NCBI GenBank assembly: GCA_045863235.1
Contig: BTUM01000001.1
Coordinates: 256,001-320,000, forward strand
Source: Candidatus Xenobia bacterium
GTDB taxonomy: Bacteria; Vulcanimicrobiota; Xenobia; Xenobiales; QWHO01
DNA length: 64,000 nt
Direction of reading: 5' to 3'
In this document: positions 21,114 through 26,962 of the stretch, piece after piece
How the letters are laid out: the number at the start of each line of letters is the position of its first letter
How positions within the stretch are numbered: position 1 is the first letter of the stretch
Notes under the pieces: generated by a model
What the model was told of the DNA's origin: nothing
The model's database searches: none
The model's input: the letters and a program-made list of their open reading frames with translations, nothing else
Made by a program: the position numbers and the translations under genes

Positions 21114-22160
21114 TCAGCTGGCGAAGAGCTGGGTGAGGTAGTCGAACATCAGGGGATCCTTGTGGCGCAAGATGTCACGCGCTCCCGCTTCGAAGAAGGC
21201 TTCCACCGACTCGGCGAACCATTCCTGCGGGTTGACCTCGGCATACTGGCTGACCTTCCCGGAACGTTCCCTGGCGAAGCGGTTGTAGAGCTGGACCGAC
21301 AGGGGGTGGGTGCGCGACTCCTTGTCCTGCACGTAGTGGTCGTAGGCGTGGGCGAATTCATGCCGCGCCGCCGAGCGCCCCTGATTACCCAGAAGCTCTT
21401 CTCCCACCACCAGAAGCCTGCGGCTCTGGTCATACAGGCCGCGCACAACGCTCCAGGGGCGTCCGTCGAAGGTGCGCTCGCCCGGAGCCACCACCTTCAT
21501 CCCCTTGATGGTCAGGTCGGTCAGGGCCATCTGTTTTTCCAGGACGATGACGTTCAGACCCCACTGTTTCATCTTCTGCACGATGGTCAGGCCCATGGGC
21601 TCGAGCTCGCGGACGATCTTGTTGCGCGCTTCGCCCGAGGGGGCGTGGCGGATCATCTTCTGCAGCACTTCGGCGGTCGGGCTGGAGCTGGACCCTGATT
21701 CGGAGCCGGCCGTAGTTGGGGCCCCCGGCTGGCGCGGGACGTAGCTCGAGAGCTGGATGATGGAGGGGAAGACCGGCTCGGAGGGCAGCTCTTCCTGCTG
21801 CCCCTCGTACTCCTCGCGCTGAAGGTCCTCGCGGTAGCTCTCCAGACCCGAGAGCAAGGCCTCGAAGTCTTGTTTGCTCGAGTAGGCAAAGCCTTTGCTC
21901 TTGCCCTCGTCGCGCATCCTCTTGCGCAGTTTGTAGAGATACTCGCGGGCATCGGGAGAGAGATCGAGGGTGTCGGTGGTGAGCAGATAGTGCAGCTTCT
22001 GCTCGTCGTCGAGCGTCTCGAGCTGGCGCAGGACGTTGGGCTTGACGCTGCGGGCGAGCTCGCGCTGGACGGCCCCGATGTGGGCAGCATCGTAACCCTG
22101 GAAGTTTGGGCCTCGAATCTCCATGGGATATGGCATGATTAGACGCGGCGAAACAAACAC
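21114..22160 (-). CDS. Zinc metallopeptidase, anthrax lethal factor (ATLF)/Pro-Pro endopeptidase-like C-terminal domain
   Basis: HEFAH zinc motif and YAEVNPQEWFAE; true start may be ATG 22124 (MEIRG). Confidence 0.75.
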   Translation of the reverse strand: MFVSPRLIMPYPMEIRGPNFQGYDAAHIGAVQRELARSVKPNVLRQLETLDDEQKLHYLLTTDTLDLSPDAREYLYKLRKRMRDEGKSKGFAYSSKQDFEALLSGLESYREDLQREEYEGQQEELPSEPVFPSIIQLSSYVPRQPGAPTTAGSESGSSSSPTAEVLQKMIRHAPSGEARNKIVRELEPMGLTIVQKMKQWGLNVIVLEKQMALTDLTIKGMKVVAPGERTFDGRPWSVVRGLYDQSRRLLVVGEELLGNQGRSAARHEFAHAYDHYVQDKESRTHPLSVQLYNRFARERSGKVSQYAEVNPQEWFAESVEAFFEAGARDILRHKDPLMFDYLTQLFAS

Positions 22161-22745: not shown

Positions 22746-23064
22746 GATGGTCCCATTTTGTCGGTCTGGTCTCAATCGACCGTGGCACCCTATCGCCTTC
22801 CGTTTAACCGAGCGCATGCCGAGAGGTCACAAACTTTGTTTGCCGCGGCTGGGGGAGACCGCGCTCTGGGTGAGCGGCGCGCACCTCTGGGGCCGTCCCG
22901 AGCATGGGGGGCGGCTCTCTTACGGATACCTCAGCCGGATGGTGCACCGGTATGCCTTGCGGGCGGGTCTGGAACCCTTCGGGATGCACATGCTGCGCCA
23001 CGCCTGGTATCAGATCGTGAACTCCTCCTTCCAAAAGCAGATTTACAAAAGGTCGCGTCGTCGT

Positions 23065-23150
23065 GCCTGTGGGAAGTGTGGGCAGCTTTGCTGTCCAAGC
23101 CCTGTGGGAAACTCGAAGAGTTTTCCATCGGGGCGTCACTTTCCACAGGC
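23065..23150. repeat. Palindromic MITE/REP-like element inside the IS110 non-coding end
   Basis: Terminal inverted repeats gcctgtgggaagtg / cactttccacaggc (13/14) with two internal hairpins. Confidence 0.7.
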
Positions 23151-23199
23151 CTTGTCGGCCAGCGGACGTCGCCAGGTTTCCTGGTGCTGTCCACAAGTC

Positions 23200-23528
23200 T
23201 TTCAGGTTTTGGCCTCCCGTGGCGGAGTGGACCGCCCCTGGTTTCCGAGTCCTCACTTGGTATCCTGAGTCACCGCGAGAGACTCGCGGGCTCCAACTTC
23301 CTTCATCCTGGGTGCTCGGGAGGCGGAGGTTCACTTCTTCGCTTCGGAGTCGCCTTGGAGGGCGCTCGCCTTCGTGTGCCGCCAGAATCCTCTGCCACCA
23401 GAGAACAAAAACCTGACTTGACTCAACTTAGAGGGGTTCTGACCGCGGGCCACGTCTACGCTTCGGAGTCGCCTTCGACGGCGCTCGCCTTCGTGTGCCG
23501 CCGGGCTCCGCAGTCTCAACCCCAAACT
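23200..23528 (-). ncRNA. Candidate IS110 bridge/seek-type guide RNA region
   Basis: Non-coding region downstream of the transposase with three GAAGG..GAGC-hairpin-GACTC modules and donor-like segments (see findings). Boundaries are approximate. Confidence 0.55.
23340..23502. repeat. 44-nt direct repeat pair with a 75-nt spacer
   Basis: 23340-23383 and 23459-23502, 42/44 identical. Confidence 0.95.
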
Positions 23529-24354
23529 CTATGCCGCTTTGCTCCTCCTGTCCGTCAGGCGTGCTTTGAGGCTCACGACGTCGTCAGCGGCTCTGTCGCG
23601 GTGGCGGAACTGGCTCCGACTCTTGCAGATCGTCAGGACGATCCGGAGCAACCGGCACATGTTGGCGACCAGCGCCTTCACGGTGGCTTTGCTCTCTAAG
23701 CGCAGCGACAGATATGATGTCATCAGCGTCTCGTTGTGACGCAGAGTGGTTACAGCCATCTGGTAGAGCAGGTGGCGAAGCAACGGCCTGCCCATCCGGG
23801 AGATCCGCTTTACGCTCTCCCGCTTCGCCCCGGGTTTCCCGCCGGATGTCGCTCGACCAGGTTGAGGCCGGCCAGCTTGACGAGCTCTTTGGCGTTTCGA
23901 TACTGCGCCGGATCGCCGATTTCGCCAAGCAGACAGGCCGCGCCCAACTCGCTGACGCCGGGAATGCTGGCGATCAGCTCGGCATAGCCGGTCTGGCACA
24001 CCAGCGCAAGCAGCTGACTCTCGATGCGAGCCAGTTGGTCGTTGAGCATCCGGCACTGCTCGACCGACTCCAGCAGCTCCGCGCGTGCGGACAGGAGGCC
24101 CTCGCGGACTCCGATGGAATCCCGCGCCGCCTCGACCAGCGCTTCGGCCACCTTGCGGCCTCGCCGCCGGCGCTCGCATCAGCCCAGAGCTTGTCGAAGG
24201 AAGCCCGGTCCTGGCCCATTTTGAAGGGCTTGCCGAGCAGCATCCCATCGGGTAGCATAAAGGAAACCAGATGGGTGCTCTTGGCCAGGTCGAGCCCAAT
24301 CGCCAGCTTGTTCTTTACCATCTGCTTCTTCTGGTTCAGTTTTGCAAAGTTCAT
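23529..24354 (-). pseudogene. IS110-family transposase/recombinase with internal deletion and frameshifts
   Basis: IGLDLAKSTH (RuvC DEDD start); SIPGVSELGAACLLGEIGD..LVKLAGLN; SG..ISRMGRPLLRHLLY. Spread over three frames; most of the DEDD domain is missing. Confidence 0.9.
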
Positions 24355-24616
24355 CCCGGTCGCTCCGTTCTCTTGACTGTAGGAAGCCACGAGATACCAG
24401 GGTGCCCGGGATGATCCTTTTCCCGGCCACCATTTCCTTATAGGAGTTCTGCGCGACCCATCTCCTCGAGCGCGGCGCCGACCTTCGCGCCGTCCAGGAG
24501 TTGCTGGGCCACGACTGTCTCGACTCCACCCAGATCTACACGCAGCTCCGCCCGATCGCTCTCGAGCACGAGCACCGGCGCACCCACCCGCGCGCCCGGC
24601 GCAGCAAGGAGGCCTG

Positions 24617-25382
24617 ATGACCTGGGAAGCGCTCTGGACCGCCTATCTCCAACACCTGGAGGGAACTCGTCTTGGGACTGCCACGCGCATGGCGGTGGCC
24701 ATCTGGGTGCCACGCTTCATCGCGCTGTGCCAGCGGCGCCAGGCCGAGCACGTGCGGGCCTATGAGCTGGAGCTGCCGTGGCAGCCCGGCCCACGCGGCC
24801 GGCTGTATGCGGCCAACACCGTGGACCAGGCGCTCCGGACGGTGCGGACCTTCCTGCGCTGGGCCCACGGCCAGGGAATTCTCCCGCGTGACCCGGCGGG
24901 GCACCTGGTGCTGGGGCGACCGGTGCAGCCCAGCTCGCGTGTGCTGACCCCGGAGGAGGTGGAGCGGGTCCTGGGCCAGCCCGATCTGAGCGGCCCGCTC
25001 GGACTAAGGGACCGCTGCATTCTCGAGCTGGTGTACGTGACGGGAATGAGCAGCCAGGAGCTCTGCGGGCTCGACCTGGCCGACCTGTGCCTGGCCGAGC
25101 GCCTGGTGCTGGCGCGCCAGGGCGGCGGCCTCCCCGCGCGGCCCTACGGCCTGACCGCACGCCTCCAGGAGTTGCTGGGGCTGTACTGCTGGAGGTCTCG
25201 CCCCGACCTGGCGCCTGAACCTCCCAGGCGGCGCTATTCGTGAACAAGCGCGGCGGCCGGCTGTGCCATCACCGGGTGCTGGCCGTGACCCGGCAGTGCG
25301 GCGAGCGGGCCGGGCTTCCCGGAAAGCTCACGGTGCTGTGTTTGCGGCGGGCGCACAAGGTGCACAGGCCTCTCTCCCTTAA
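24617..25382 (+). pseudogene. Second Xer-like tyrosine recombinase, frameshifted and 3'-degenerate
   Basis: SAM-like N-terminus; GLRDRCILELVYVTGM..EL..LDL.D; after a frameshift near 25225 reads ALFVNKRGGRL..AGLPGKLTVLCLRRA. Start overlaps the previous stop (TGATG). Confidence 0.82.
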
Positions 25383-25430
25383 CCGAGAATCGAAATCGTG
25401 CTAGACTGTGAGCGTATCCGAGGAGGCGAC

Positions 25431-25673
25431 GTGACCGACAAAGCCCGACAGATCGTGGAAATGGTTCTTGAGCTGGACTTCAGGGAGCGCAACGAGGTGA
25501 TCTCCCAGTTGCTGGCCAGCATCGATGAAGCTGTGGACGAGGATGCCGACGCCGCCTGGGACGCCGAGATCGGTCGTCGAGTTGAGGCGTTGGAAGCCGG
25601 GACAGCGCAAACCATGCCGGTTTCCGAGGCTCTGAGCAAGCTCGAAGCAGCCAACAAACAGGCCGCTCGTTGA
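25431..25673 (+). CDS. Addiction-module antitoxin (Unstab_antitox-like)
   Basis: LDFRER..LLASID..DAAWDAEIGRRVEALEAG; GGAGG RBS; TGcTAGACT -10 element upstream. Confidence 0.85.
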   Translation: MTDKARQIVEMVLELDFRERNEVISQLLASIDEAVDEDADAAWDAEIGRRVEALEAGTAQTMPVSEALSKLEAANKQAAR

Positions 25674-25969
25674 CCTTTGAAGTCTTTCTCGAGGCCTACG
25701 ACGAGGCCGAAGAAGCTCGCCTTCGCTATTTCGAAGAAGACCCCGATCTGGCCGTCGACTTCGTAGCCGAGCTCCGGGCCACGCTCGGACGCATCCAGAG
25801 CACTCCGGACTTCTTCCCGAAGGAACGCCACCGAACCCGAAAGGCGTTCCTACACCGGTTTCCCTTCAAGGTGATTTACAGGGCGGCGCCCGATCAGCTA
25901 ACCATCATAGCTGTGGCCCACATGAGCCGGAAACCCGGTTACTGGCGCGAGCGGCTCGAGCGGATCTAA
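25670..25969 (+). CDS. RelE/ParE-family toxin
   Basis: LHRFPFKVIYR..IIAVAHMSRKPGYW; start overlaps the antitoxin stop. Confidence 0.88.
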   Translation: MTFEVFLEAYDEAEEARLRYFEEDPDLAVDFVAELRATLGRIQSTPDFFPKERHRTRKAFLHRFPFKVIYRAAPDQLTIIAVAHMSRKPGYWRERLERI

Positions 25970-25984
25970 GGTGTAATCGAAGAC

Positions 25985-26962
25985 GTGAGCGCTCGTGCCC
26001 GACCTCTACTGAAGAATCCTCAATGGCACTGGCCCCATGACGCATTGGGCTCGGTCCGGGCCATCACGGATAACACTGGGGCTGTCGTTGGGAGTTACAG
26101 CTACGGGGCTTGGGGCGAGACTATGTCGGCCTCGGACCCGAGCGGCTTCACGATACCCTACTTGTTCGTGGGCGCGCTGGGGGTCCGGTATGACAGCGCG
26201 ACCGGGCTGCACTACTGCAGAAACCGCTGGCTCGATGCGGCAGGGCTTCAGTGTTTCCTGAGCAGGGACGTAATCAAGTCCCCGAATCGTTACGTCTATT
26301 GCCACAACGCACCTACGCAGTATATCGACCCCAACGGGCGTTTCCCTGAAAGCCCTGAACTGAGACAGACCTACCGTCGACTCTACGACCGCTGGCGCAA
26401 TGATTACACTGCGTCGGGAGATTATCTGGTTCGCAACCGAGGTGGCGGGCTGTGGAGTTTGTGCCGTATGCTCCACGAAATCTCCGACTCCGTCACATCC
26501 AACGAAGACTTTCTTCAGCTCCTGCAGGCGCTCTTTGTGAACAACTCTAGCGTAGGCACGATTAACCAGTTCGTCGAGACGCTCACTCTGAACCAGACTT
26601 CCATGACAACACTGAGCGAAAGTCAAATGCAGGGGCCGCGGAGAGCCTATGCTCCAGGTCGAAGGGATTGGAATCACAATTACCAGGATGATGTTGAGCC
26701 CCATCAAGACCAGACCCACCACTTGGTAGCTTTCATCATCGCTGGCTACAAGCACGGTGATCGCGTGGCCGAAGGCTTAGGTACACTCCTGGATCTACCA
26801 CAAGGCAATATCGGCGATATGAATGTCACCACGCAAGGCGCGATCTTTGGAGACCTGCTCAGGTTTCACAATGACCTGGACAAGGGTGACCCGGAGAAAA
26901 TGAAGTGTTATCGCCGGAGTTGGATAACCTCACTGTGTAGTCGGTTGAATACCGGTCCATAG
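25985..26962 (+). CDS. Orphan Rhs module: Rhs core plus unknown C-terminal toxin domain
   Basis: DALGSVRAITD, YSYGAWG, TGLHYCRNRW, FLSRD and NRYVYCHNAP..IDPNG core motifs; YD repeats absent. Confidence 0.85.
   Translation: MSARARPLLKNPQWHWPHDALGSVRAITDNTGAVVGSYSYGAWGETMSASDPSGFTIPYLFVGALGVRYDSATGLHYCRNRWLDAAGLQCFLSRDVIKSPNRYVYCHNAPTQYIDPNGRFPESPELRQTYRRLYDRWRNDYTASGDYLVRNRGGGLWSLCRMLHEISDSVTSNEDFLQLLQALFVNNSSVGTINQFVETLTLNQTSMTTLSESQMQGPRRAYAPGRRDWNHNYQDDVEPHQDQTHHLVAFIIAGYKHGDRVAEGLGTLLDLPQGNIGDMNVTTQGAIFGDLLRFHNDLDKGDPEKMKCYRRSWITSLCSRLNTGP

Follow-up and report, generated by a model that had tools for sequence, protein, structure and literature searches.

The bridge RNA of IS110-family elements has previously been described as a molecule with one target-binding loop (TBL) and one donor-binding loop (DBL), as far as the available text of the reports goes (PMC11208160, PMC12045711, 10.64898/2026.10.21.760802). 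In IS621, the accessible parts of two studies describe a 5' hairpin, a TBL and a DBL with left and right guides and handshake letters, together with a promoter formed at the junction (PMC11208160, PMC11208158), and the non-cognate pairing rule for the handshake letters was derived from the same element (PMC11208158). The IS1111 group was reported to contain sub-terminal inverted repeats of 11–13 bp and transposases of 330–350 aa, and ISEc21 was reported to target the codons at the second D of the IS3 DDE motif (both in the available portion of PMC11187229). Split TBL and DBL RNAs were stated to work in IS622 (accessible text of 10.1101/2025.05.14.653916), and a TBL-only RNA was stated to make up 90% of the CazIS110-1 RNA (accessible text of 10.1101/2025.10.25.684509). 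The bridge RNA was also termed a single two-stem unit with the same ancestry as the repeated tandem-guide units of TIGR-Tas (available part of PMC12045711). Expanded IS110 loci were reported to carry tandem non-coding repeats beside the genes, and one such locus has several predicted DBLs (accessible text of 10.64898/2026.08.14.744561). The Ssr9 of ISPpu9 was described as a separate MITE-like passenger (PMC12288879, in its available sections).

In our study, an IS110-family element was analysed in a window of 64,000 nucleotides (the whole stretch of DNA under analysis, from a Candidatus Xenobia bacterium), and its features are given in Table 1. The element resembled IS621 in its recombinase with DEDD and Tnp domains (8WT6 was the closest solved structure, E 7e-10), its CT core, the 5' hairpin, TBL and DBL with their guides and handshake letters, and a predicted junction promoter. 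It differed from IS621 in that the RNA was located 3' of the gene with the guides flipped, the enzyme was 437 aa long, a second TBL was present, the first target core base was variable (C or G) and the target was a protein-coding motif. As in the ISEc21 seekRNA, the target consisted of the codons around a catalytic residue of the enzyme of another mobile element; however, ISEc21, as described in the accessible text, uses an upstream non-coding region, one target loop and DDE transposase genes, whereas the window element uses two loops and tyrosine recombinases. The Bacillota relatives (L262–L292) shared the inner stem, the 8-nt right strand, the AG core complement, the handshake letters and the DBL layout, but contained one TBL each and were mostly flanked by GGAG-rich sequence. 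A TBL-only RNA that works beside the DBL arises naturally by processing in CazIS110-1, according to the available text; there it is cut from one two-loop transcript, and in IS622 it was engineered, whereas the window encodes a second TBL. The expanded IS110 loci are a partial precedent for extra loops, and no duplicated target loop is named in the accessible text of that report, whose Fig. S9 and supplements may bear on novelty (10.64898/2026.08.14.744561).

The intact related recombinase (protein P0001) contained the DEDD RuvC-like and Transposase_20 domains with the catalytic D, E, D, D and S residues, the element had inserted site-specifically about a 2-nt core with no duplication of the target (empty site and four left junctions), and the non-coding end contained loops complementary to target and donor, as in IS110. 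The canonical arrangement of one TBL and one DBL was found neither in the window nor in L017. The long non-coding region downstream of the gene and the position of the top-strand match 5' of the bottom-strand match agreed with the IS1111 layout, but the size of 437 aa and the presence of only an 8-bp inverted match (23019–23026 against the left end; one change in L017, absent in G023) did not agree with the IS1111 group. The element is thus IS1111-like in layout, yet it is not filed in IS1111. It is not a TIGR-Tas system either: there was no regular array and no Tas protein, and the three units had unlike stems, one of them being a donor loop, beside a full IS110 recombinase.

Table 1. Coordinates of the features in the window, with the strand and the basis of each assignment.
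Feature	Position	Strand	Basis or remark
5' relic of interrupted tyrosine-recombinase gene	22903–23005	+	PF00589 positions 101–137, E 0.0055
IS110-family element	23006–24450	-	CT core at 23004–23005 and 24449–24450; cut read as T|G
-35-like hexamer	23016–23021	-	junction sequence of joined ends
Palindromic block, distal right end	23065–23151	.	separate from bridge RNA
Predicted 3' bridge RNA	23232–23515	-	downstream of gene; order TBL1, spacer, 5' hairpin, TBL2, DBL
DBL, donor-binding loop (predicted)	23232–23326	-	layout as in Bacillota relatives
DBL right guide	23259–23266	-	
DBL inner stem	23267–23293	-	
DBL left guide	23295–23302	-	
TBL2, canonical target-binding loop (predicted)	23329–23389	-	aligns with single TBL of G023
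TBL2 core and handshake letters	23335–23338	-	
TBL2 right guide	23339–23346	-	
TBL2 inner stem	23347–23367	-	
TBL2 left guide	23374–23381	-	
5' hairpin, canonical bridge-RNA unit	23387–23406	-	folds in window, L017 and G023
TBL1, extra target-binding loop with own closing stem (predicted)	23441–23515	-	repeat comparison, folding
TBL1 core and handshake letters	23454–23457	-	
TBL1 right guide	23458–23465	-	
TBL1 inner stem	23466–23486	-	
TBL1 left guide	23493–23500	-	
IS110 recombinase gene, broken	23529–24354	-	Pfam; alignment to intact L017
3' part of interrupted tyrosine-recombinase gene	24451–24617	+	PF00589 positions 136–169, E 2.9e-9; begins with right target half

The ends of the element were fixed because a contig of run X12 contained the empty site, in which 23003 is joined to 24449 and three letters fit either side; the boundaries of the original prediction were borne out by this contig. 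The same ends were seen in L017, G023 and G001. A TG core was considered and dropped, as the flanking AG of the Bacillota ends gives a CT core with the cut between T and G. The genome search found a single copy of the element in G000.

The assignment to IS110, which had been made from the sequence, held: fragments of PF01548 and PF02371 were found in the window copy by the Pfam search, and the intact relative P0001 (437 aa, identical to the L017 recombinase) matched the two families with E values of 4e-25 and 6e-21, respectively. In comparison with the intact L017 gene, the window gene contained a 487-nt internal deletion at about 24168–24170 and lacked one base at about 23846. The D22, E77, D121, D124 and S333 residues were invariant across 13 relatives of P0001; in the window copy the segment E77–D124 was removed by the internal deletion, and with its recombinase broken the window element would need an intact copy in trans. 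The intact form of the gene was present in contigs of runs X6 and X15, and the damage is therefore private to the window strain or to the assembly. At 23384, 23633, 23720 and 23998 the window letter differed from all four runs covering each position; these letters are either private to the window strain or assembly errors. The RNA-labelled runs (X15 and X18) contained contigs spanning the gene and its flanks, which indicates presence only.

The non-coding right end was 523 nt long, against 96 nt for the left end. Read by eye from the joined ends, the -35-like hexamer would lie 18 nt before a -10-like hexamer (24437–24442) only in the circle, and the joined ends of G023 read TTGACA-18-TATGAT, likewise by eye; in the promoter scan of the linear form, the junction hexamers were not scored. 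An inverted repeat at 24346–24419 covered the start codon and the left end, contained an 8-nt complement of the right-end tip that was also found in G023, and may hide the ribosome-binding site. The palindromic block of the distal right end differed at 3 of 105 columns between the window and L017. Related palindromic repeats were observed at L007 2170–2345, at L008 3891–3962 and in the right end of the distant Bacillota locus L292, the block being present twice in G023, and it may be a mobile repeat carried by IS ends.

The region is, with high confidence, predicted to be a bridge RNA with the TBL and DBL assignments of Table 1. The original prediction had reported a 44-nt direct repeat (23340–23383 and 23459–23502), and its copies were found to differ at two positions only (23357/23476 and 23360/23479), which lie in the hairpin loop as claimed. 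When the 527-nt end was shuffled 200 times, no 44-nt match exceeded 29 positions, against 42 observed. The repeat family extended to 59 nt, beyond the 44-nt edge given earlier, and a third difference at 23339/23458, just outside the 44 nt, was more telling than the loop differences; at this position the guides of the two target loops differ. The third module, with its hairpin, GATACCA (23258–23264) and AGGAAGTT (23295–23302), was found where it had been placed. The position of AGGAAGTT as left donor guide was right, but the match in the window was imperfect (AGGAGT in G023; 7/7 in the Bacillota relatives). The DBL right guide was complementary to the element end GGTATC in the window, L017 and G023.

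The order of inner stem, 8 nt, core complement and two handshake letters fitted all five TBLs and all three DBLs of the window, L017 and G023. The TBL handshake AA was complementary to the donor TT in three of the five TBLs, the canonical loop containing AA, and the TBL1 handshake was only half complementary (AC); the DBL handshake GT was complementary to the target AC. The 5' hairpin was unchanged between the window and L017. The TBL model R2 matched TBL1, which was part of its training set. In G023, the TBL matched its own target at 13 of 16 positions, a score reached in 35 of 200000 shuffles, whereas the swapped controls failed (191621 and 197653 of 200000 shuffles); the DBL score was 11/17 (5020 of 200000 shuffles), with the left part clipped by the limits of the scored segment. 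The three mismatches of the G023 guide fell, by eye, at third codon positions, so that guide and site encode the same five residues.

The modules could instead be REP-like DNA palindromes or chance repeats with no guide RNA. The Rfam search of the region gave no real match (one chance hit, E 2.4), and the fold of the whole region was no better than that of shuffled sequences (z -1.49), as such a reading would have it; module 1 alone folded better than shuffles (z -2.66), being the one segment among the eight folded with z < -2. The donor and target complementarity with its failed swapped controls, the single copy in G000, the exact homology of layout and the covariation of guide and flank across the relatives all argue against palindromes or chance, which we regard as very improbable and already largely refuted.

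Covariation between loops and insertion sites, named as a check in the original prediction, was found in the Bacillota IS110 relatives (28–38% identity). A search of 301 genomes in the phylum of G401 gave at least 30 such loci, with matches in 54 of the genomes. Guide and flank agreed at 92 of 120 positions over the last five bases of the right guide (24 of the 32 loci could be parsed), against a permutation mean of 47.3 with 0 of 100000 permutations reaching the observed value, although the relatedness of the loci inflates this significance. The covariation of the left guide was weak (34/68, mean 29.2, 1694/50000, 17 loci). The Bacillota elements shared the inner stem of the modules of the window, and the 3' strand of their target loop was composed of the stem, 8 nt, AG and two handshake letters. 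In these elements AG precedes the left end and follows the right end, which gives a CT core, as in IS621. By eye, these relatives were mostly located at GGAG-rich flanks resembling ribosome-binding sites; a 3' bridge RNA of two loops, with a CT core, was clearly recognisable in them. The homology and the covariation support the reading of module 3 as donor loop and of modules 1 and 2 as a duplicated target loop. The term array-like goes too far for an RNA with one donor loop, two target loops and outer stems that are unlike.

The target, which the original prediction had left unnamed, was found to be a codon string of the tyrosine-recombinase R-H-x-x-A motif. The 5' relic of the interrupted gene ended in the left target half CGCCACGCCT (22996–23005), and the insertions of the window, G023 and L017 all broke PF00589 at position 136, inside R-H-x-C-A. 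The target guides, read as codons, gave R-H-T-(C/Y/F)-A. In a contig of X15, the left end runs into further integrase-like sequence, which could be the L017 site or another. The G001 junction, one of the four left junctions, was in a PglZ-like gene and not in an integrase, yet it contained the same DNA motif; by analogy with the insertion from a half-match reported in the available text of 10.64898/2026.08.31.748434, a half-match insertion could explain this site. The copy in question (L009 141–599, minus strand, G001:C137) interrupts a PglZ-domain gene that is BREX-like. The pattern CG.CAC...T was present in all four left half-sites and at 2558 of 2860565 T positions of G000; the second core base T was constant at the four junctions, and the first was C or G.

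The guides of the window matched their own site loosely (6/8 on the left and 3/5 on the right, with a U-G pair possible in addition); between 2604 and 4227 sites of G000 reach the same score. The left half of L017 matched at 5/8. Only one of the 38 CGNCACNNNTGYGC sites in G000 was in the integrase motif. The guide alone does not account for the excess of integrase hits, since a match at the level of the window occurs at thousands of sites and so few CGNCACNNNTGYGC sites lie in the motif; the extra cause may be the loss of insertions in needed genes or further determinants. The surrounding segment 22744–29195 was observed to be a decayed mobile island with two broken tyrosine recombinases, an addiction antitoxin and a ParE-like toxin (25398–25969), an RHS-repeat remnant (25985–26962) and an IS21 istB. 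Outside it, a 348-aa protein (21114–22160, minus strand) contained a zinc-peptidase-like HEFAH motif and matched Pfam ATLF (E 3e-12) and Peptidase_M90.

The close clade comprised three full right ends, those of the window, L017 and G023 (L007, recombinase 54% identity), and the tip of a fourth (G001). L017 contained two target loops and G023 contained one. Over 643 aligned columns in the 3' part of the gene, the window and L017 differed at 12, seven of them within the last 35, and the right end was far more diverged. The onset of divergence was abrupt, in the last 35 nt of the gene (window 23528–23561, L017 1370–1404), and this suggests that the whole guide-bearing right end was exchanged, like a cassette, on a recombinase that is nearly identical in the two. 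A quick tree placed the window/L017 lineage with G023, P0002, P0012 and P0013 (support 95) and separately from the Bacillota elements, and because this clade sits apart a single target loop is taken as ancestral.

Further close relatives were few. The genome contigs gave three distant loci only, and among the 80 loci of the metagenome contigs L017 alone was close. The viral contigs gave none by protein, and the pattern matches there were only chance (80 of 118 loci and four further loci checked). In 401 genomes of the same phylum, the protein search found G000, G020 and G023 only, and the pattern search found 2 of 401; the pattern matches in G015, G019 and G033 were, on inspection, not IS ends. 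There was no relative in 251 genomes of the phylum of G402 and only four distant relatives in 201 genomes of the phylum of G403. Among the matches listed for plasmids and phages, only relatives of 21–35% identity were present, with no match to the RNA, and the RNA model R1 matched only G000 and G023 among 44 genomes.

On 42 loci, the TBL model gave two matches in the window (L001) and L017, one match in 35 loci and none (E < 0.05) in five, in a comparison whose training set included 28 of the 35 single-TBL loci and G023, so that a diverged extra loop could escape (TBL1 scored 22 bits). TBL1 is known from two alleles of one small lineage only. Between these alleles, the spacer and distal parts had changed at 33 of 156 columns and TBL1 at 4 of 76 (Fisher p 0.002, for regions drawn after the alignment had been seen). 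Two of the changes in TBL1 were loop letters, a third was in the stem and G-U-compatible, and the fourth was at the variable guide base; the stems were kept, and none of 78 pairs was changed on both sides between the window and L017. In the closing stem, two of three pairs were changed on both sides between TBL1 and TBL2. The hairpin loops differed in all four TBLs of the window and L017, and the remaining cores were nearly invariant.

TBL1 could be a non-functional, fairly recent duplicate beside an ordinary two-loop RNA, kept alike by youth or gene conversion. A single TBL suffices in each of the 35 relatives in which one was detected, IS110 genes are commonly accompanied by tandem non-coding repeats (n=468, in the available text of 10.64898/2026.08.14.744561), and the known alleles with TBL1 number only two. 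However, four unlike hairpin loops amid near-invariant cores form a pattern that conversion would not leave, the change between alleles was lower in TBL1 than in TBL2 with the hairpin (8 of 81 columns), and the closing stem of TBL1 is its own and compensated; we therefore consider a non-functional duplicate unlikely. Because its changes are few, its stems are kept, its closing stem is compensated and the four hairpin loops are unlike, the conservation of TBL1 is, judged from the alignments, purifying selection rather than youth or conversion, and TBL1 is probably functional.

The third difference, at 23339/23458, falls on the base of the guide that would face the first target base beyond the cut. 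This base was U/A in the two TBLs of the window, C/U in those of L017 and C in G023. By its pairing, C would select Cys codons, U would select Tyr codons (and, through wobble, those for Cys), and A would select Phe codons. The codon at the cut in the integrases of five related genomes was F in 11, C in 9, Y in 1 and another in 5 of 26 rows (30 of 63 matches were fetched, and 5 of 31 rows anchored on the wrong Arg were left out), and in the integrases of G000 it was F in 7, C in 3, H in 2 and T in 1. We tentatively propose, as a rather doubtful extension, that the two TBLs split the codon variants of the motif: the base by the cut would pick Cys, Tyr or Phe in R-H-x-[C/Y/F]-A, third-position mismatches would be tolerated, one IS would parasitise most tyrosine-recombinase genes of the islands, and the right end would be swapped as a cassette. 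No insertion at a Phe or Tyr codon was found among the sites read, Tyr being rare and the loops few (five); the right half-sites with letters read (window and G023) were both Cys sites and begin with G.

TBL1 could also work without a second specificity, by raising the dose of TBL RNA, by serving a direct-transfer step or as a decoy of the recombinase, with drift in the guide base. The left guides were identical over 8 nt in all four loops, the right half-sites read all start with the G of a Cys codon, C and U of L017 are both able to pair with G, Tyr at the cut is rare (1/26), and the TBL-only RNA of CazIS110-1 drives a distinct step in the accessible text of 10.1101/2025.10.25.684509. Against drift, the same guide position differed between the loops in both alleles and was changed in both loops, and the letters seen (C, U, A) fit Cys, Tyr and Phe, Phe and Cys together being 20 of the 26 codons of the relatives and 10 of 13 in G000. 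A role in dose, transfer or decoy is a serious but still somewhat unlikely alternative, and it overlaps the best explanation, which claims only that TBL1 works.

The best explanation as a whole, namely a bridge RNA, the targeting of integrase codons and TBL1 as a selected second working loop, is likely, as a prediction. Following IS621, IS622 and CazIS110-1, excision would join the ends and form a junction promoter transcribing the gene and the RNA, and processing of the RNA would release separate loops. As in IS621, the DBL would pair with the joined ends around the CT core, and the TBL would pair with CGNCAC left of the cut and about five bases on the right. These bases are codons of R-H-(T/S/A)-(C/F/Y)-A in tyrosine recombinases, and the element accordingly lands in the integrase genes of mobile islands, as seen from the sequence matches and the insertion sites. 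In the window/L017 lineage, TBL1 would have arisen from a duplication, and selection would maintain it as a second functional target loop. Again by comparison with IS621, IS622 and CazIS110-1, it would most likely act on its own, together with a recombinase dimer that has bound the DBL.

In the literature searched, which lay outside subscription journals and preprint supplements, no IS110 element with two TBLs and no IS110 element aimed at tyrosine recombinases was found, and the accessible text of a review (PMC13604230) contained nothing on the subject. Tools for genome writing are being developed from bridge recombinases, whose RNA is described as having a single target loop and a single donor loop. 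An element in nature whose two target loops are both under selection would supply a starting scaffold for targeting several sites, and it would allow the action of extra loops in cis to be tested directly. The guides and sites also form a natural series for measuring mismatch tolerance, the first core base included. Guides that spell the active-site codons of integrases would extend the ISEc21 case to a second enzyme class. If the split of specificity is true, the RNA would be a naturally multiplexed bridge RNA in which two target loops share one donor loop, part of the way from the two-loop form to a guide array.
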